From an uncultured Trueperaceae bacterium (GTDB lineage: Bacteria; Deinococcota; Deinococci; Deinococcales; Trueperaceae): a stretch of 64,000 nucleotides of DNA. The DNA is taken from contig CAWFFU010000012.1 of the NCBI GenBank assembly GCA_963815215.1, forward strand, positions 1-64,000, written 5' to 3'. Of this stretch, positions 40,976 through 49,804 are shown one piece after another (the stretch's first letter is position 1; every line of letters begins with the position of its first letter). Below the pieces are notes generated by a model, which saw only the letters and a list, made by a program, of their open reading frames with translations, was not told the DNA's origin and ran no database searches. The position numbers were made by a program, and so were the translations under genes.

Positions 40976-41611
40976 TCACCAGGTGGCGAGCAGCAGCAGC
41001 GCGGCTGCCCGCTCGAGCTTGTTCACGGGATTGGGAGTGAGCTTCACCACCCCGTCGACGGCCTCGGCGATCAACTCCAGGTCGGCGCGGGGCGTGCCCT
41101 CGCCGGCCTCGATCTCGACCTCGTCGAAGTAGGCGCTGCGCTCGGCGCCGGGCGCGCGTGCGGACACGGCGTCGAAGGCGAGCTGGGCCACCTCGTTGCC
41201 GTCGCGCAGCAGCCGGAAGAGAACGCGCGTGGTGTCGAGCTCGACGCCGGGCCGTAGGGCCGCGGGCTCGACGAGCCCTTCGAGCCGCGCCAGGATGGCG
41301 TCGGGCCAGGCGGCGTCCGGGCCGGCGCCCGTTACGGGGAGCTCCAACTCGTCGCGCTCGTGCAGCGCGGCGTCGGTCGATCCGGCCGACTTGACCCCCG
41401 CCAGGGTGGTCCCGCCCAGGCGTCGCCTGCGCAGGGCGATGCCGGCCTGGCGCAGGTGCCCGGCGGGGTCGTCGTAGTAGAGATCGTGCAGCTCCTGCAC
41501 GGGCGCGGCCACGGCCTCGAAGGGGGTGGCCGCGAGCGCGGCCCGGAGCTCGCTCAACGACGGCACGTAGGCGTCCAGCACCGAGAACTTGAGCTCGCGC
41601 TCGATGGGCAT
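40976..41611 (-). CDS. CYTH domain protein
   Basis: ERELKF (ExExK), D.YYD, LRRR, EVEIE. Confidence 0.85.
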   Translation of the reverse strand: MPIERELKFSVLDAYVPSLSELRAALAATPFEAVAAPVQELHDLYYDDPAGHLRQAGIALRRRRLGGTTLAGVKSAGSTDAALHERDELELPVTGAGPDAAWPDAILARLEGLVEPAALRPGVELDTTRVLFRLLRDGNEVAQLAFDAVSARAPGAERSAYFDEVEIEAGEGTPRADLELIAEAVDGVVKLTPNPVNKLERAAALLLLATW

Positions 41612-41851
41612 GACCGAGTCTACTTCGGGCCGGGCGGCGCCGGCCGCCCGGCCACCGCGGAGGGGTGGGCCGTCGGGCGCGCGCGAACGCCGGAAACTAT
41701 CGTGCCCGACGTGTTGTCGCAAGGGGCAAGCGGCCCTTCGGGAGCGTACCGACCGGTGGTATACTCACCGAACCTAGGCAGCCGTGCCTGGCTTCATGGA
41801 CCTCGTGCCCGTGTTCACCGCGCGTACCAGCACGAAAGGAAGCCGATTCCG

Positions 41852-43900
41852 ATGCCCAACATCCGCAACGTGGCCGTCCTCTCGCACAGCGGAGCGGGGA
41901 AGACGTCGCTCGTCGAGGCGATGCTCTACCGCGCCGGTGCGATCCCCAACCTCGGCAGGGTCGAAGACGGGGGTACGGTCTCCGACCATACTCCCGAGGA
42001 GAAGCGCCGCAAGATCTCCATCTACACCTCGATCCACCCCTACACCTGGAAGGGCGAGACCTTCAACGTCCTGGACACGCCGGGCTACGCCGATTTCACC
42101 GGTGAGATCCGCGGCGCCCAGTCCGCGGCCGATGCTGCGCTGGTGGTGGTGTCGGCGGTCTCGGGCGTGGCGGTCGGGACCGAGCGGGTATGGTCCTCGA
42201 GCGTGGAGCGCGAGCTCTCCAGCCTGTTCGTCATCAACAAGATGGATCGCGAGAACGCCGACTTCTTCCGTACCATGGCCGACATCGAGGCCACCTTGCA
42301 GGGCAACATCGCGGCCATCCAGGTCCCCATCGGCCAGGCCGAGGACTTCCGAGGCATCGTCGACCTGCTCACCATGAAGGCCTACGTCTGGCCCGAGGGC
42401 GAGCCGCAGGAGGTGCCGGTCCCCGACGAGGTGGCCGGGGTGGCGATGGAGTACCGCGACCGCCTCATCGAGGCCATCGTCGAGACCGACGACGAGCTGA
42501 TGATGCAGTACCTGGAGGACGCCGACCTCGACCCGGACGCCCTCATGCGCGCCTTCGACGAGGCGGTCCGGGCCGGTGAGCTCACGCCGGTGCTCCTCAC
42601 CTCGGCCACGCGCGTCATGGGGGTCAGCCTGTTGATGGACTTCATGGTGCACGGTGTGCGCCACGTGCAGGATCATCGGCCGCTGACCGTCGAGAAGGGC
42701 GAGTCTCCGGAGCTCGGCGAGGGGCATCCGTTCGGCGCCCGCGTCTTCAAGACGGTGGTCGATCCCTACCTCGGCAAGGTCTCGCTGATGCGCGTGCTGT
42801 CCGGCACCGTCAAGTCGGGCCAGAACGTGCACGATCCGAACCGTGAGGCCGACATCCGGGTGTCGCACCTGTACGTGCCCAACGGCAAGGACCTCAGCGA
42901 GGTCAGGGAGCTCGGCGCCGGCATGATCGGTGCCATCACCAAGGTCGAAGAGGTCAAGACCGGCGACACGCTGTGCGATCCGTCCCACGTGTTCCAGCTC
43001 GCGCCGATCCGCTTCCCCTCACCCGTCATGGCGCTGGCGCTGACGCCCAAGTCGCGCGGTGACGAGGACAAGATGTCCGATGGGCTCCACAAGCTGCTCG
43101 ACGCCGATCCGACCCTGCTGCTCGAGCGCAACGCCGACACCCACGAGACGGTGCTGTGGGGGATGGGCCACGTGCATCTCGAGATCGCCGTCAACGCCCT
43201 CAAGGACCGGTTCGGGGTCGAGGTCGAGACCCGGCCCCCCTCGGTCGCCTACCGCGAGACCATCGGCGGCAGCGGCGACGCCCGCTACCGCCACAAGAAG
43301 CAGACGGGCGGCGCCGGCCAGTTCGCCGAGGTGGCGCTGCGGGTCGCCCCGCTGGCGCGAGGCGAGGGCTTCCAGTTCAACTGGAAGGTCGTCGGCGGCT
43401 CCATCCCCTCGCAGTTCCACCCGAGCTGCGAGAAGGGGGTCAAGAGTGCCCTGGAGTCCGGGGTGTTGGGCATGTTCCCGGTGCAGGACGTGATGGTCGA
43501 GGTGTACGACGGCAAGGACCACCCCGTCGACTCCAAGGACATCGCCTTCCAGATCGCGGCGGCCCAGGCCTTCAAGGAGGCCATGCACCAGGCCAAGCCC
43601 GTGCTGCTCGAGCCCGTGGCGCTGCTCAAGGTGCGGGTCCCCGACCGTTACACCGGCGACGTCATCTCCGATCTGAACACCCGTCGCGGGCGCATCCTGG
43701 GCATGGACACCGAAGGCTCGGTGAGTGTGGTCAGCGCTCACGTGCCGATGGCCGAGATCCTGAGCTACTCGCCGGACCTGCGCTCGATGACCGGCGGTCG
43801 GGGTGTGTTCTCCCTCAAGTTCGACCACTACGATGTGGTTCCGGCCCAGGTCGCCGAACGGGTCGTGTCCGAGCGCCAGCAGGAGAAGGCGGCCTCGTAG
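41852..43900 (+). CDS. fusA: Elongation factor G-like paralog (EF-G2)
   Basis: HSGAGKTS, DTPGYADF, NKMDRE, YRETI, KKQTGGAGQF, DGK.H.VDS; not adjacent to str-operon genes. Confidence 0.9.
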   Translation: MPNIRNVAVLSHSGAGKTSLVEAMLYRAGAIPNLGRVEDGGTVSDHTPEEKRRKISIYTSIHPYTWKGETFNVLDTPGYADFTGEIRGAQSAADAALVVVSAVSGVAVGTERVWSSSVERELSSLFVINKMDRENADFFRTMADIEATLQGNIAAIQVPIGQAEDFRGIVDLLTMKAYVWPEGEPQEVPVPDEVAGVAMEYRDRLIEAIVETDDELMMQYLEDADLDPDALMRAFDEAVRAGELTPVLLTSATRVMGVSLLMDFMVHGVRHVQDHRPLTVEKGESPELGEGHPFGARVFKTVVDPYLGKVSLMRVLSGTVKSGQNVHDPNREADIRVSHLYVPNGKDLSEVRELGAGMIGAITKVEEVKTGDTLCDPSHVFQLAPIRFPSPVMALALTPKSRGDEDKMSDGLHKLLDADPTLLLERNADTHETVLWGMGHVHLEIAVNALKDRFGVEVETRPPSVAYRETIGGSGDARYRHKKQTGGAGQFAEVALRVAPLARGEGFQFNWKVVGGSIPSQFHPSCEKGVKSALESGVLGMFPVQDVMVEVYDGKDHPVDSKDIAFQIAAAQAFKEAMHQAKPVLLEPVALLKVRVPDRYTGDVISDLNTRRGRILGMDTEGSVSVVSAHVPMAEILSYSPDLRSMTGGRGVFSLKFDHYDVVPAQVAERVVSERQQEKAAS

Positions 43901-43927
43901 CGGGGCGGCCGTGGCTCGCCGCGGGGA

Positions 43928-43953
43928 CGCCGGGGTCCGTGTCGGCCCCGGCG
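43928..43953. terminator. GC-rich hairpin between the convergent EF-G2 and ccdA genes
   Basis: cgccggggtc..ggccccggcg stem; no U-tract. Confidence 0.3.
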
Positions 43954-43963
43954 GATGCCGGCT

Positions 43964-44722
43964 CTAGCGCCTCTGGGGCGTGAGGAGCGGAGCCAGGTTC
44001 ATGCCGCTGAGGTAGGCCAGGAACGACGGCAGGATGGGCAGCACGCAAGGGGAGAGGAACGACAGGGCGCCGGCCCCGAAGGCCAGCGCCAGGGTGGGTG
44101 CGGCCATGGTGCCGAACAGCGCGCTCTCGGCGCTGCCCAGGTTGGCCAGGTAGGGGGACAGGGCGTTGAGCGCTCCGGTCAGCAGCAGCACGCCCACGGC
44201 GATGAGCAGCACCGCCCCGACCTTCTCGAGCATGCCCGAGTAGCGCCGCAGTGCCCGTGTCGCCGGCAGGAGCTGGGACAGCGCCAGGAACGGCAGCGAG
44301 AAGCCCAGCGAGTAGGCGAACAGCAGGAGCCCGCCCTGGGCCCCGCCGCCGCTGGTGGCCGCGATGCCCAGGATGCCGGCCAGGATCGGCCCGATGCAGG
44401 GCGTCCAGCCCGCGGCGAAGGCGACCCCCACGACCGCCGAGCCCAGGTAACCGCTGGGCTTGCGCATGAGGTGGACGCGCAGCTCCTGCTTGAACACGGG
44501 CAGCGGCAGCACGTCGAGCATGATGACGCCCATCACCACCAACAGCGCCCCGGCGACGACGCGCAGGACGCCGCCGTAGGCGAACAGCAGGTGGCTGAGC
44601 AGGCCGGCACTGAAGCCCAGCGCCACGAACACGGCCGACAGGCCGGCGACGAAGGACAGGGTGTGCAGCGCCAGGTGCAGCCGGAGTGGGAGCGCGGCTT
44701 CGGCGCTCGCGTCCGCCCTCAC
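43964..44722 (-). CDS. ccdA: Cytochrome c biogenesis protein CcdA, circularly permuted
   Basis: Central GWTPCIGPIL; the normally N-terminal AFGAG.LSFLSPCVLP motif is at the C-terminus. Confidence 0.85.
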   Translation of the reverse strand: MRADASAEAALPLRLHLALHTLSFVAGLSAVFVALGFSAGLLSHLLFAYGGVLRVVAGALLVVMGVIMLDVLPLPVFKQELRVHLMRKPSGYLGSAVVGVAFAAGWTPCIGPILAGILGIAATSGGGAQGGLLLFAYSLGFSLPFLALSQLLPATRALRRYSGMLEKVGAVLLIAVGVLLLTGALNALSPYLANLGSAESALFGTMAAPTLALAFGAGALSFLSPCVLPILPSFLAYLSGMNLAPLLTPQRR

Positions 44723-44768
44723 GATGGTGCCTTCACGATGGTGCCTTCATAGCGGCGCCTTCATAGCG
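44719..44768. repeat. Four 14-bp tandem units linking the hemC-like stop and the ccdA start
   Basis: tcacgatggtgcct x2, tcatagcggcgcct, tcatagcg. Confidence 0.85.
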
Positions 44769-45654
44769 CGGTGAGCTGACTGCGAACGTCCTGCGCGAGC
44801 TCCCGGCCCAGCTCGTCGGCTTCCTTGGCCTCGCCGCTGACGCTCGCCTGCAGCGTCGTCTCGCCCCGCAGCACGGTGCCGAGGAGGGTGAGCTCGCCAT
44901 CGTCGGTGACGTTGGCCAGCGCGCCGACCACGCACTCCCGGCAGATGTCGTCGCTGTCGGCCGGGCCCTGCCTCAGGGCGCTGGCGAAGCTGCGCTCGGC
45001 ACGGACCCGGTCGAAGCTCGGGCGGTGCTGCAGCGAATAGGCCACTTCGAAGGCGAGGTCGTCGTCGGCGCGCACCAGCAGGCCGAGAGCGCCCTGGCCC
45101 GGTGTGGGCGCGAAGGTCTCGGGGTCGAGCACGGTATCGAGCCGGTTGCGGTGGTCCAGGGCGATGAGTGTGGCGGCCGGGATCAGCAGCCCATCGAGCT
45201 CGCCGGACGTGAGCAGCTTCAGGGTCGCCTCCAACGTGCCGGAGACCTCGACCGCCTCGACCGCCAGGTGCTGGCCCGCCAGGTAGGCGGCGTCACGCGG
45301 TGTCAACACCCCGATGCGGGCGCCCTCCGGCAGCTCGGTGAGCGCGCGCGACCCCTTGGTCACCAACGCGGTGCGCGGGTCCAGGCGCCGGGACACCGCC
45401 GCCAGCGTGACCTCCTCGGGGAGCGTCAACGGCAGCGTCTCGAGCTGGGCCACCGCCACCCCGATGTCGCCCTTCAGCAATGCCTGCAACAGCGGATCGT
45501 CCCCGCCACTCGCCTTCGACTCGACGTCCTTGATGGTGCGGAGGGCGAAGTTCACGTCCGGCCACTCGTCCGTCAGCTGCTCGAGCACATCCCGAGCCTG
45601 GCGCAGCGCGAGTGCGCCGTCGCGGTTGCCCAGCACGATTCTTGCCATGGCCAT
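44761..45654 (-). CDS. Hydroxymethylbilane synthase (HemC)-like protein with a degenerate active site
   Basis: Scaffold motifs retained (R..ALA..Q, DPR.AL, LP.GA.IG, P.PGQGALG, AERSF); catalytic motifs replaced. Confidence 0.75.
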   Translation of the reverse strand: MAMARIVLGNRDGALALRQARDVLEQLTDEWPDVNFALRTIKDVESKASGGDDPLLQALLKGDIGVAVAQLETLPLTLPEEVTLAAVSRRLDPRTALVTKGSRALTELPEGARIGVLTPRDAAYLAGQHLAVEAVEVSGTLEATLKLLTSGELDGLLIPAATLIALDHRNRLDTVLDPETFAPTPGQGALGLLVRADDDLAFEVAYSLQHRPSFDRVRAERSFASALRQGPADSDDICRECVVGALANVTDDGELTLLGTVLRGETTLQASVSGEAKEADELGRELAQDVRSQLTAL

Positions 45655-45738
45655 GTTGTATCACACTCTGCGGCCCCGGCGGATGCGAGAAAACCTCTGT
45701 GGAAGGGCATCGGTGGCGCGCCTCAGGACGCTCCCGGA

Positions 45739-46914
45739 TCAGGCGATCGCCAGCGCCTGTTCCTTGAGCTCGTCCACCCGATCGGTGCGCTCCCAGGGGA
45801 AGCCGTTGCGGCCGAAGTGGCCGTAAGCGCTGGTGGCGGTGTAGATGGGGCGGCGCAGGTCGAGCTGGGCGATGATCGAGGCCGGGCGGGCGTCGAACAC
45901 GCGACCGATGAGGTCTCCGAGGCGGTCGTCGCCCAGCTCGGAGGTGCCGAAGGTGTCGACGTACATGCCCACCGGGTGGGCAACGCCGATGGCGTAGGCG
46001 AGCTGCACCTGGCAGCGTTCGGCCAGACCCGCCGCGACCACGTTCTTGGCGATGTAGCGGGCGTAGTAGCTGGCCGAGCGGTCGACCTTGGTGGGGTCCT
46101 TGCCGCTGAAAGCGCCGCCGCCGTGCGGCACCGCGCCTCCGTAGGTGTCGACGATGATCTTGCGGCCCGTGAGGCCGGCGTCGGCCTGGGGACCGCCGCG
46201 CACGAAGCGGCCGGTGGGATTGACGAGGTAGCGGGTCCGCTCGTCGAGCAGGCCGTCGGGGATCACGGGGCGCACCACGTGCTCCTTGACCTCCTCGCGC
46301 AGGCGCTCGAGCGTCACGTCGGGATCGTGCTGCGCCGAAACGACCACGGTCCGCACGTGCGTCGCCCGGTCTCCCTCGTAGCCGAGCGTGACCTGCGCCT
46401 TGCCGTCGGGGCGCAGGTAGGGCAGAGTGCCGTCCTTGCGGACCGTGGCCATGCGCTGCGTCAGGGCATGCGCGAGCATGATCGGCAACGGCATCAGCTC
46501 GGGTGTCTCGTGGGTGGCGTAGCCGAACATCAGCCCCTGGTCGCCGGCTCCGACGAGGTCGAAGTCGTCGCCGCTGTCGGCTTCCTGGGCGCGATCGACG
46601 CCCAGCGCGATGTCGGGTGACTGCTCGTTGACCGCGATCAACACCGCGCTGTGATCGGCGTCGATGCCGTAGGACGCGTCGGTGTAGCCGACCTCGCGCA
46701 CCGCCTTGCGAACGATCGCCTGGAAGTCGACGTAGCCGTGGCAGGTGATCTCGCCTGCGATGAGGGCCAGGCCGGTGGTGAGGATCGTCTCGGCAGCCAC
46801 CCGCGCATATGGGTCCTCGGCCAGGATGGCATCCAGGACGCTGTCACTGATGCGGTCCGCGAGCTTGTCGGGATGTCCCTCGTTCACCGATTCGGCGGAG
46901 ATGAGTCTGCGCAC
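45739..46914 (-). CDS. metK: S-adenosylmethionine synthetase
   Basis: [48 protein letters not shown]. Confidence 0.97.
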
Positions 46915-47100
46915 GCCTGTGTCCTCCAGGGGGAGCCGTGGTAACCGGGCGCGCCCGCTACGGAACGCGCGCCGTTCGATTCGCCATGCTAGCAGGGCGC
47001 GGGCCGGCGCAGCGTGCCGCACGATGGCGTTCCGAGGCGGCGCCTTCGCCGACGCGGGGCGGGCGCCCGGGACGGACGTTGCCGCCGCGCGGGACGTGGC

Positions 47101-47106
47101 TATACT
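47101..47106 (+). promoter_or_regulatory. -10 box TATACT 5 nt before the GNAT ATG (example of many leaderless-type promoters in the window)
   Basis: TANNNT 5-9 nt upstream of a start codon with no SD, recurring at more than a dozen genes. Confidence 0.7.
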
Positions 47107-47111
47107 CGGGC

Positions 47112-47636
47112 ATGCGGGACACCCACGTGGGGCACGCCATCCGCCGCGCGAACACGGGCGACGCTCACGAGGTCGTTCGGCTGATGCGCACCATCTACCT
47201 CGAGGGCCGCTACTTCGTCGGCGACGGTCCGCCCCAGCCGGAGTCGCTTGCGCGTCGCATCGTCGGGGACGACCCCGTCCATGCGCTGTACCTGGTGGCG
47301 GAGGTCCGGCGCGATTCCGAGCCCGAGCTGGGCGGCTGGCTCGAGCTCCACCGCATGCAGCCGCGTCGGCTGCAGCACGTTGCCGTCCTCACGGTGGCGG
47401 TGGCGCCCGAGTGGCGCCACCACGGTCTGGGCCGCGGGCTGTTGCGGCGCTGCTACGACTGGGCGCGCGACGTCGGCGTCGGCAAGGTGAGCCTCAACGT
47501 GCGCGCCGGTAATACCGCGGCGATCGCGCTGTACCTCTCCGAGGGGTTCGTCGAAGAGGGGCGCGAGCGCGCTCAGGTACGCACCGACGAAGGGGAGTTC
47601 GAGGACAACGTGATCATGGGGCGCTGGGTCGTGTGA
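47112..47636 (+). CDS. GNAT family N-acetyltransferase
   Basis: VAPEWR..GLG..L, N..AIALY...GF..EG. Confidence 0.88.
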
Positions 47637-47714
47637 GACCCGGCCGTGCGTGGCGGGCCGGACCGGGACCGTGGCGCGGCTGCGCGCCGCGCGGCCCTCG
47701 CCTAGACTGGCGTC

Positions 47715-48269
47715 ATGGCTGACCCGATTCCCGCCGCCGCGGCGCGGCCCGGCGTGACGGCCCCCGCCGCACGCGTCGCCCTGTTCGTCGACACCCAGAA
47801 TCTCTACTACGCCGCCCGCGACGGCTACGACGCGAGCGTCGACTATCAGCGCCTGCTCGATCTGGCGCTGCGCGGCCGCGAGCTCGCATCCGCCACCGCC
47901 TACGTGGTGGAGCGCGAAGGGGACAGCACGGCCTTCGGCTTCGTCACCAAGCTCTCCGCCCTGGGGTTCCGTGTGCGGCGCCGCAGCGTGCGGGTGCACC
48001 GCACCGACGAGGGCGGCGGCACCGTCATGGAGGGCGACTGGGACATGGGCATCGCCGCCGACATGGTGCGGTCGCTGCCCTACGTCGAGGTGCTGGTGCT
48101 GGGCTCCGGCGACGGCGACTTCGTGCCCATGCTGGAACTCGCCCAACAGCGCGGCGCCCGGGTGGAGGTGCTCGCCTTCCGTGAGGCCGCCGCTCAGACC
48201 CTCATCGATCTCGCCGACCGCTTCACCCACCTTCCGGACGAGCCCGGCGTCTTCGTACGCAGGTCCTGA
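47715..48269 (+). CDS. NYN domain (LabA/DUF88) protein
   Basis: FVDTQNL, D.D.GIA.D, SGDGDF.P, LAD.F. Confidence 0.88.
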   Translation: MADPIPAAAARPGVTAPAARVALFVDTQNLYYAARDGYDASVDYQRLLDLALRGRELASATAYVVEREGDSTAFGFVTKLSALGFRVRRRSVRVHRTDEGGGTVMEGDWDMGIAADMVRSLPYVEVLVLGSGDGDFVPMLELAQQRGARVEVLAFREAAAQTLIDLADRFTHLPDEPGVFVRRS

Positions 48270-48276
48270 GGCGCGC

Positions 48277-49713
48277 CTAGGTTCGGGTCTCGAACAGGTC
48301 GGCGCCCGCTCCCCCGCCTCCAGCGATCGCGTCCGCGCAGGCGCTCGGCCGCACCGGCCAGGCCCGGGCGGTAGCCTCCCCCGTGGTGCGCCAGGTCCCC
48401 TCCGCTAGCCAGTCGCCGTCGACGAGCTCCAGATAGTCGTAGGTTGCGGTGACCACGTCCAGCCAGGCGCGGTAGACGGCGTTCTCACGTGCCAGCAGGG
48501 CGCGGCACGCGCTCGGCGAGGCACCGGTGGCGCCGGCGTCCCGCCAGGCGCCGAGCTCGGCGTCGAGCAGCGCGGCGGCGTCGTCGACGGCCGTGCGCGC
48601 TCGCCCGACGTCGTCCGGGTAGCCCGCGTCCAGCGCGTCGAGCGCGGCGCCCGCCCGCCGCACGCCTTCGTCTGCGGCCGCCTGGACGTCCTCGGTGCTG
48701 CCGTCCAGGCGCAGGCGGGCGCTCAGCGCCACGCTCCACTGGTCGTCCTCCTGTGCGCCGAGCTGGCCGTCGAGGTCGGCGGCGGGGCGGCCTCGGTCGA
48801 GCGACAGCGAAGCGCTCACCTGGTAGTCGTAGCTGCTCGACTCGTAGGTGGCCACCAGCGTGACGTCCCGCACCACGTCGAAGGGGACGCTGTCGCGCCG
48901 CACGATGGCCCGCTGCAGCTCGAGCTGCAAGCGCTCGCGTTGGGGCGCCCGGGTGCCGGGTCCCGGGAGGGCGAAGCGCAGGGGCACGAAGCGGGCGGCC
49001 CCCTGGAAACCGAGGCGTGCCGCCTGCGCCTGAAGCGCCTCCAGCGCGTGGCGGCGCGCCTCCACCAGCACCTGGGCACGGCGCAGCGCGGGGCTCGGCG
49101 TCGGTGACGCGGCGCTGCGCCGCGTCCGGGCCAGGTCCAGCTCCGCCCGGTGGAGGGCCACCTCGGCCGCGAGCACCTTGCCGTGGAGCCGCAGTGTCGC
49201 CAGCACGTCGTTGCGGCGGTCGTGTCGCAACCGTTCCCGGGCCCGGAGCAGACCGGCGCGATCGGCCAGGATCGCCGCGGGGTCGTGGCGCCAGGCCAGG
49301 TCCAGCTCGACGTCGGCGGTGGCCCCGATCGCCGCCGGGTCCTCGACGTCGGCTCCATAGCTCAGGACCGGCCGAGCCGTGAGCGTGACGTCGGTGCCGG
49401 CGCGGCTCGCTCCCAGCGCACGCTCGGCGGCGTCGACCGCGGCCGCCTGCCGCACGGTGCGTTCCCCGTCGGGCGTGGCCACTAGCGCGTCGGCGGGCGC
49501 GAAGGCCAGTGCGGCCGGCGCCCACAGGAAGACGGCCAGAGCCGCAACGGCGCCCTTGCCGGCGGTACCCCTGCCAGCGGGAACCCTGCCAGCGGGAACC
49601 CTGCCGGCAGGAACCCTGCGCGCGGCGCCGCGCATCGCGGCGGACGGTCGTCGCGCACGGCCACAGGCGCGGCGCCGAGGCATGGCGCAACGGACGAGTT
49701 CCCCCATCTCCAT
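48277..49713 (-). CDS. Exported hypothetical protein, possibly TolC-like outer membrane channel
   Basis: Signal-like segment ending ALA; two repeats of a beta-strand pair plus long helices. Confidence 0.4.
   Translation of the reverse strand: MEMGELVRCAMPRRRACGRARRPSAAMRGAARRVPAGRVPAGRVPAGRGTAGKGAVAALAVFLWAPAALAFAPADALVATPDGERTVRQAAAVDAAERALGASRAGTDVTLTARPVLSYGADVEDPAAIGATADVELDLAWRHDPAAILADRAGLLRARERLRHDRRNDVLATLRLHGKVLAAEVALHRAELDLARTRRSAASPTPSPALRRAQVLVEARRHALEALQAQAARLGFQGAARFVPLRFALPGPGTRAPQRERLQLELQRAIVRRDSVPFDVVRDVTLVATYESSSYDYQVSASLSLDRGRPAADLDGQLGAQEDDQWSVALSARLRLDGSTEDVQAAADEGVRRAGAALDALDAGYPDDVGRARTAVDDAAALLDAELGAWRDAGATGASPSACRALLARENAVYRAWLDVVTATYDYLELVDGDWLAEGTWRTTGEATARAWPVRPSACADAIAGGGGAGADLFETRT
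49565..49618. repeat. 15-bp in-frame tandem repeat (VPAGR x3)
   Basis: accctgccagcggga units. Confidence 0.8.
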
Positions 49714-49804
49714 CCCCCCTTTTCGGACTTGCGAGCTGGTCGCAGTGTAGCAGAGGGTGGGAGCGGCCACGCACCGGCTCTCGCCGGCCCCAGACGGGCC
49801 CGAT

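Follow-up and report, generated by a model that had tools for sequence, protein, structure and literature searches.

HemC*, a degenerate paralogue of hydroxymethylbilane synthase in Trueperaceae, is probably a pseudoenzyme retained outside tetrapyrrole synthesis

The DNA considered here (the window) is a stretch of 64,000 nucleotides from contig CAWFFU010000012.1 of an uncultured Trueperaceae bacterium (genome G000), and its subject is a minus-strand gene for a degenerate paralogue of HemC, the hydroxymethylbilane synthase (HMBS), which we name HemC* (gene hemC*). HemC* is probably a selected pseudoenzyme of an old hemC lineage, independent of tetrapyrrole synthesis and now serving as a cofactor-free binding or adaptor protein. 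In Trueperaceae, hydroxymethylbilane synthesis is the task of another, canonical hemC, located within the heme cluster. The old copy has shed its catalytic Asp, its lid loop, three of five cleft arginines and, in most lineages, the cofactor Cys; in the scheme that we favor, this cofactor chemistry would have disappeared either after the second hemC took over or while both were present. What was retained would be a cofactor-free three-domain clamshell acting as a small-molecule binder or as an adaptor or regulator, to which the genus of the window would have added a CxxC insert as a local redox or metal switch rather than as the core function. The gene and three of its replaced motifs lie as follows:

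44761..45654, minus strand: the hemC* open reading frame (ORF), 297 amino acids, intact, encoding a non-catalytic HemC-fold protein.
45436..45456, minus strand: AVAQLET (residues 67-73) in place of AVHSxKD, the catalytic Asp being Thr, the Lys Glu and the His Ala.
45292..45312, minus strand: GVLTPRD (residues 115-121) in place of GTSSxRR, the first Arg kept and the second replaced by Asp, both in 79 of 79 family members.
45220..45243, minus strand: SGTLEATL (residues 138-145) in place of RGNxxTRL, both arginines gone.

The ORF shows gene-like codon bias (GC content at third codon positions, 0.92), and its true start is likely the second ATG, at 45648, judging from homologues that begin MARIV and from a motif located upstream. 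HemC* matches PF01379 (Porphobil_deam) with 99 bits (E 3.5e-28), above the gathering threshold of 22.1 bits, and the C-terminal domain PF03900 with 19.1 bits, under its 26-bit threshold. The NCBIfam hemC profile TIGR00212 aligns over its positions 2-291 with 132.2 bits (130.5 bits when the genome was searched), short of the curated cut-off of 164 bits. The degenerate type stays below this value in 61 of its 63 carrier genomes; the exceptions are G086 (190 bits) and G048 (164.7 bits, reached only with neighbours in frame). This near-complete profile match and a confident three-domain predicted fold bear out the original prediction of a full-length, intact HemC scaffold, and the four changes that it listed (AVAQLET, GVLTPRD, SGTLEATL and DDICREC) are all present in the sequence. 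In the phmmer alignment with Bacillus megaterium porphobilinogen deaminase (4mlq, 5ov4), Thr73 stands at the Asp of AVHSMKD, and the lid loop TxGD...GGKGLFxKE is deleted; GTRGS has turned into GNRDG. The PDB titles of the B. megaterium D82A/E/N mutants indicate that the Asp of AVHSxKD is the residue studied as catalytic. Separately, a fusion reading of long frames (685 and 408 amino acids) was rejected, these being out-of-frame open stretches typical of high-GC DNA.

The same replacements run through the degenerate family, for which 79 sequences (78 distinct) were assembled. Residues are given here in what we take to be the numbering and roles of E. coli HMBS (R11, D84, R131, R132, R149, R155, C242), in which the five arginines bind carboxylates of cofactor and substrate and C242 carries the dipyrromethane cofactor. 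Among the 61 alignment columns that are invariant in both canonical groups, the family keeps 25 and has lost 36. Those kept include R11 (76/79), R131 (79/79), the Gln of GQG (77/79) and the AER helix. Conversely, the catalytic Asp column is non-Asp in 74 of the 79 members and the Lys column before it is acidic (Glu or Asp) in 78; AVHS has lost its His and Ser as well, and T127 has become Val in 77. R132 is Asp in every member, and R149 and R155 survive in four and six of the 79, respectively. Both surviving arginines are followed by an acidic residue (NR[D/E]G in 71/79, xRD in 79/79), and the mean net charge is -14.7 in the degenerate type (A), compared with -10.6 and -4.5 in the two canonical types described below (B and C). 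From these changes we infer that the cleft has been neutralised and would no longer hold the polyanionic cofactor.

A canonical hemC does exist elsewhere in the same genome, as the original prediction proposed should be looked for. It lies on contig C9, scores 271 bits, has all catalytic residues and is set in a hemA-hemC-hemD-hemB cluster followed by a two-component pair, hemE and hemH. In this cluster, the profile match of hemB, which encodes δ-aminolevulinic acid dehydratase (ALAD), is split into two pieces within one frame (C9 15448-16527; L058 7335-8549), with about 39 extra codons separating profile positions 210 and 211; hemB of G019, G042, G044 and G046 is split likewise, possibly by a lineage-specific insertion. 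Based on a 49-sequence alignment and on searches of 41 relatives, three types of HemC can be defined. Type A, to which HemC* belongs, is degenerate and full-length, occurs only in Trueperaceae and scores 100-150 bits. Type B is canonical and full-length, belongs to the other Deinococcales families, reaches 317-343 bits and shares 39-47% identity with the window protein when genomes are searched (36-43% by blastp). Type C is canonical, matches the profile only to about position 260, scores 239-287 bits, lies in the heme cluster and occurs in Trueperaceae and a few other genomes; each of its best 120 relatives shows at least 58% identity, those with names being Trueperaceae.

The distribution of these types across 80 Trueperaceae genomes at least 90% complete (G085 was left out of 81) separates HemC* from heme synthesis. 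In this sample, where type counts and metK-adjacency counts were tallied by hand, HemC* is present in 63 genomes, of which 48 carry type C as well and 15 have no other hemC homologue; the remaining 17 genomes carry type C alone. The 15 A-only genomes are precisely those without ALAD, which all 65 others have. The A-only genomes are 90-100% complete (G017, G020, G023, G024, G060 and ten more of genus g12), although they fall in only about five lineages. Because the lack of ALAD means a lack of porphobilinogen, HemC* cannot act as a deaminase in these genomes, and its retention there indicates a role that is independent of tetrapyrrole synthesis. URO-D and HEM4 were not found in four A-only genomes searched (92-98% complete, one of them a single contig), and these same four have CcmF, CcmC and canonical ccdA. 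The ALAD-less Trueperaceae are probably heme auxotrophs that still make c-type cytochromes.

These observations bear directly on whether HemC* could, by means of an unusual active site, still act as a hydroxymethylbilane synthase or as some related pyrrole enzyme. Homology to HMBS does extend over the full length, a Cys of the window protein is aligned to the cofactor Cys (see below), and JGI labels the relatives "hydroxymethylbilane synthase". However, HemC* has lost the lid loop and the catalytic Asp along with R132, R149 and R155, it is the sole homologue in the 15 ALAD-less genomes, a canonical hemC stands in the heme cluster of its own genome, and its score lies below the curated cut-off of NCBI, which labels the relatives "hypothetical protein". 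Continued catalysis is therefore highly improbable.

The origin of HemC* was addressed with a careful maximum-likelihood (ML) tree (LG+C20+F+G4, PMSF), in which type A is monophyletic (100/100) on a stem of 0.92 changes per site. Its sister group (99/96) is a pair of half-degenerate, full-length HemC proteins from G035 and G039 (genus g22, of another family), genomes that also carry type C. Type B is monophyletic in only 3% of 200 bootstrap trees, and type C is set apart from the A/B side by a 100/100 branch. Because of this placement, HemC* is read from the tree as an old, vertically inherited Deinococcales hemC lineage and not a foreign gene, with long-branch effects possible on the grouping of type A with the half-degenerate copies. 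The genes for these copies are:

L052 4842-5750, minus strand, and L053 4521-5411, plus strand: half-degenerate hemC of G035 and G039.

In these copies the Asp is His or Tyr, the lid is deleted and R149 is Glu; R132, R155 and the loop Cys are kept, and the proteins score 251 bits, above the hemC cut-off. The G035 copy adjoins fur, as B copies do, and no fur was seen beside the G039 copy. The half-degenerate copies look like an intermediate stage of the same process.

Once synthesis has been set aside, it could be argued that HemC* is a functionless remnant heading for loss, which would agree with its absence from 17 of the 80 genomes, with its long stem branch and with a ratio of nonsynonymous to synonymous substitution rates (dN/dS) above that of metK. 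Pairwise NG86 estimates over eight genomes of the genus (28 pairs) gave dN/dS of 0.17-0.42 for HemC*, 0.16-0.37 for canonical hemC, 0.03-0.26 for the permuted ccdA described below and 0.07-0.24 for metK in the same genomes; the HemC* values are well below 1 and in the same range as those of true hemC, and a separate estimate came out similar. Furthermore, hemC* is intact in all 63 carrier genomes, except for two copies cut by contig ends, and none of the genome matches of hemC* has an internal stop. Among 69 aligned sequences, 30 columns are invariant at a mean identity of 58%, and the predicted fold is very confident. The invariant residues that set type A apart are D121, V116, G13, P159, Q209, R211, S213 and Q269. 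Relatives are also numerous in metagenomes: in a 90%-clustered collection, 1244 were found at E <=0.001 among the 8000 candidates scored, canonical HemCs sitting among the weaker of them and the best 120 all being at least 50% identical to the window protein. A library of 1.8 billion proteins, clustered at 50%, includes about 20 representatives of the degenerate type that score above the canonical plateau. A decaying remnant is thus very improbable, and the original reading of HemC* as a pseudoenzyme that is not in neutral decay holds, given both this selection and the persistence of the gene in the 15 ALAD-less genomes.

Several points nevertheless weigh against a selected, cofactor-free pseudoenzyme. 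The 17 genomes without hemC* imply that the gene is dispensable in some lineages. Its dN/dS is about twice that of metK, and dS is possibly underestimated in these 70% GC genomes. Five of the 79 members still have Asp at the catalytic column, and this, along with the phmmer-aligned Cys of the window protein, may point to residual chemistry in some members. Finally, the binding or adaptor mode is a best guess, drawn from the fold and the residue changes only.

The AlphaFold2 model of HemC*, built from the 69-sequence alignment, has a predicted local distance difference test score (pLDDT) of 94.5 and a predicted template-modelling (TM) score of 0.92, the only softer stretches being residues 41-50 (the shortened lid) and 231-240 (the CxxC insert; pLDDT 81). 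HMBS entries fill the top 31 of the Foldseek ranks listed, with TM scores up to 0.86 (1ypn, 1pda), and the first fold other than HMBS, at rank 33, is periplasmic-binding-protein-like (TM <=0.48). When HemC families were excluded, the best score in an ESM Atlas search was 0.87, under the useful range. A signal peptide was also considered for HemC* and rejected, the protein beginning directly with strand 1. Since the cleft would be neutralised and acidic residues follow its arginines, the ligand of HemC*, if there is one, is more likely neutral, zwitterionic or cationic than a polycarboxylated pyrrole.

This expectation also applies to the possibility that HemC* is a non-catalytic binder of heme or another tetrapyrrole, i.e., a chaperone or sensor that uses the residual pyrrole cleft and would be useful to organisms that use heme but are unable to make it. 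In line with this, HemC* is kept in all 15 ALAD-less genomes, the four of these that were examined use heme (as judged from CcmF, CcmC and canonical ccdA), two cleft arginines and GQG are retained, and there is an old linkage to a redoxin and ccdA-like pair (see below). On the other hand, the cleft has lost most of its carboxylate-binding arginines and acquired acidic residues; no His, Cys, Met or Tyr is newly conserved as a candidate axial ligand, Tyr206 and His210 being present in canonical copies too; and the 15 of 15 co-occurrence is statistically not strong because it represents only about five lineages. Heme binding is accordingly an unlikely alternative to the binder or adaptor that we prefer.

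The feature of HemC* that first drew attention was its CxxC motif, proposed in the original prediction as a redox mechanism coupled to a neighbouring CcdA. The features concerned are:

44932..44943, minus strand: the CxxC (Cys238 and Cys241) of DDICREC, within a genus-specific insert in a domain-3 loop; Cys codons 44941-44943 and 44932-44934.
43964..44722, minus strand: ccdA*, a DsbD_TM/CcdA-like membrane thiol-disulfide transporter gene, 38 nt downstream of hemC*.

The Cys pair occurs in nine of 69 aligned relatives and in nine of the 79 of the larger set, all nine from the closest genus-level clade and all carrying it within an insert of 8-12 residues, and 70 of the 79 family members have no Cys in that loop. 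Even within the genus, G007 has no CxxC. Both Cys are kept in all nine insert-bearing sequences, and the two residues between them vary. The motif is a lineage-specific addition that is probably selected within its nine carriers, as the retention of both Cys suggests. Because of its restriction to these carriers, the CxxC cannot be what the family is selected for, and neither the conservation across orthologues nor the general redox mechanism originally envisaged is borne out. The accompanying claim that the cofactor loop GGCxxP had become DDICREC is right as to the sequence and less certain as to its meaning: phmmer aligns Cys238 (the first of CREC) with the cofactor Cys, whereas MAFFT puts the Cys pair in an insert, and the cofactor Cys may be retained rather than replaced in the window protein.

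The neighbouring transporter gene is itself unusual. As originally noted, hemC* lies immediately upstream of a circularly permuted CcdA, whose SPCxLP helix stands at the C-terminus instead of in its usual first place; G012 shares this architecture, and in canonical ccdA genes the piece matching residues 202-244 precedes the piece matching residues 20-192. A normal ccdA is present in the ccm cluster on contig C10. No natural CcdA permutation was seen in the part of the literature that the search reached. The 38-nt spacer between the two genes (44723-44760, minus strand) contains a tandem unit of about 15 nt, with two exact copies and a diverged third that runs into the ccdA* start.

Full-length ccdA* occurs in 37 of the 80 genomes, 25 with HemC* and 12 without it. 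Of the 25, 16 have ccdA* no farther than 1.5 kb from hemC*: in seven (the genus of the window plus G019) the two genes directly abut, and in nine there is a gap of 0.6-1.2 kb, filled by a gene of the AhpC/TSA-Redoxin (TlpA/ResA-like) type in all four cases checked (G012, G016, G064 and G086). The co-directional order metK-hemC*-redoxin-ccdA* is complete in G086 and G064, and metK-redoxin-ccdA* is kept in G089, which has no HemC*; from these orders, the block is judged to be old. Conversely, 38 genomes have hemC* without ccdA*, including all 15 that lack ALAD, which, together with the 12 that have ccdA* without hemC*, makes an obligate partnership unlikely.

With this distribution in hand, the proposal that the HemC* CxxC exchanges electrons at the cytoplasmic face of the neighbouring permuted CcdA can be weighed. 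It is favored by the retention of both Cys throughout the insert clade, by the direct abutment of hemC* and ccdA* in that clade, where the redoxin gene of other genera is missing, and by the proximity of the two genes in 16 of the 25 genomes with both. It is at odds with the lack of a loop Cys in 70 of the 79 members, with G007 and G019, in which hemC* abuts ccdA* without any CxxC, and with the many genomes that have one gene without the other. In addition, the motif sits in a flexible insert and not in a thioredoxin fold, and no thioredoxin-like fold was among the Foldseek structure matches of HemC*. A redox partnership is, on balance, quite unlikely, and a binding or adaptor protein to which one genus added a CxxC remains the preferred reading.

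A more constant neighbour of hemC* than ccdA* is metK. The features on this side are:

45739..47022, minus strand: metK, probable true start near 46914; a conserved neighbour 84 nt upstream of hemC*.
45655..45725, minus strand: conserved segment of about 70 nt upstream of hemC*, in which TGnTACAAC ends 6 nt before the second ATG.
41360-43900, plus strand, 40976-41722, minus strand, and 46938-48269, plus strand: EF-G paralogue, CYTH-domain, GNAT acetyltransferase and NYN-domain genes, a block conserved across Trueperaceae genera.

The distance between metK and hemC* is at most about 0.45 kb in 54 of the 63 genomes, which represent more than 20 genera; metK is elsewhere in seven, and in the other two genomes the region is cut by contig ends. 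In G023 and G024, hemC* is convergent with metK. The wider conserved block reads NYN-GNAT-metK-hemC*-EF-G paralogue-CYTH-SDR. The originally suggested metK-hemC*-ccdA* module is thus upheld insofar as metK accompanies hemC* in most genomes and ccdA* is close in 16 of 25, although each gene is often found without the other.

An alignment of the upstream regions of ten loci from genera g1 and g11 shows the conserved segment; what follows the metK stop in these loci is variable, with lengths of about 20 to 130 nt. The sequence TGnTACAAC is possibly an extended -10 box, i.e., hemC*'s own promoter, giving rise to a leaderless mRNA. Leaderless mRNAs are said to be common in this phylum. If hemC* does have its own promoter, its cotranscription with metK is not assured. 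A promoter and terminator scan found no minus-strand site and no terminator between metK and hemC*, and an Rfam scan of 43000-48500 found nothing near a gathering score and no S-adenosylmethionine (SAM) riboswitch. Further along the window, an ORF at 48277-49770 (minus strand) encodes 497 amino acids, rich in Ala and Arg; its codon bias is gene-like, and Pfam gave no match.

The linkage to metK raises the alternative that HemC* binds a methionine- or SAM-related metabolite, or regulates in response to one, its Arg-Asp pairs holding a zwitterionic, amino-acid-like ligand. Such pairs hold zwitterionic ligands in the amino-acid-binding periplasmic binding proteins, and the fold of HemC* resembles that of these proteins; R120-D121 is invariant, R11 is followed by Asp or Glu in 71 of the 79 members, and the adjacency to metK extends over more than 20 genera. 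Nonetheless, the whole NYN-GNAT-metK-hemC*-EF-G2-CYTH block is syntenic, and adjacency may reflect inheritance only. The convergent arrangement in G023 and G024, the separation from metK in seven genomes and the conserved upstream element that hemC* seems to have for itself also speak against such a tie, and the alignment-based prediction of a MetK-HemC* complex (score 0.00) is evidence neither way. A ligand from methionine or SAM metabolism is accordingly unlikely as a specific proposal. A bolder synthesis would have HemC* found an HMBS-derived class of sensors or carriers, for heme or tetrapyrroles or for methionine- or SAM-related compounds, acting with an ancestral metK-hemC*-redoxin-permuted-ccdA block and, in the genus of the window, communicating with CcdA through the CxxC switch; we regard this as conceivable but unlikely.

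With a selected, non-catalytic HemC*, one of the best-studied enzyme families would gain a pseudoenzyme. The full-text literature searches, within the portion of the texts that they exposed, returned no paper describing a catalytically dead HemC/HMBS paralogue, the matches listed being on a protist plastid and on animal transcriptomics; among the papers matched for Truepera and heme biosynthesis, none concerns such a protein, judged by title. The sister families (intact), G035 and G039 (half-degenerate) and Trueperaceae (fully degenerate) would together form an unusually complete natural series of the release and repurposing of an enzyme. There are also practical implications: given the JGI label, fifteen Trueperaceae genomes would appear hemC-positive without ALAD, and metabolic reconstructions could mis-call heme prototrophy. 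Moreover, the ALAD-less genomes with cytochrome c maturation genes point to apparent heme auxotrophy within a family that is free-living, a matter of ecological interest.

Compared with known systems, HemC* shares with HMBS/porphobilinogen deaminase (HemC, EC 2.5.1.61; 1PDA, 1YPN, 4MLQ) the three-domain fold (TM 0.81-0.86, 27-28% identity), full-length homology, R11, R131, GQG and the AER helix. It differs in lacking the catalytic Asp with the neighbouring Lys, His and Ser, as well as R132, R149, R155 and the lid loop, in the absence of the cofactor Cys from the family, and in having no link to the tetrapyrrole pathway in neighbourhood or genome distribution. Type II periplasmic-binding-protein-like binders, such as MetQ, amino-acid-binding proteins and the effector domains of LysR/OxyR, share the clamshell with domains 1 and 2 of HemC*, but at TM 0.39-0.48 and 13-20% identity and without domain 3; they serve as a working analogy by fold only and do not imply membership. 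Closer to home, the canonical HemC of other Deinococcales (L023-L032) represents the same gene lineage, with the EWPD motif and the C-terminal helix in common. Unlike HemC*, it keeps every catalytic residue and scores 317-343 bits, and in Thermaceae-type families its gene adjoins fur and a Mur ligase gene, whereas that of HemC* adjoins metK. Between the two stand the half-degenerate copies of G035 and G039, which resemble HemC* in the lid deletion, T127V, the loss of the Asp and of R149, and the HRPSF motif, but keep S13, K83, R132, R155 and the loop Cys. Set among these relatives, HemC* is a new, non-catalytic and fairly unusual form of a classic enzyme family, and its evolutionary history is a clean one.

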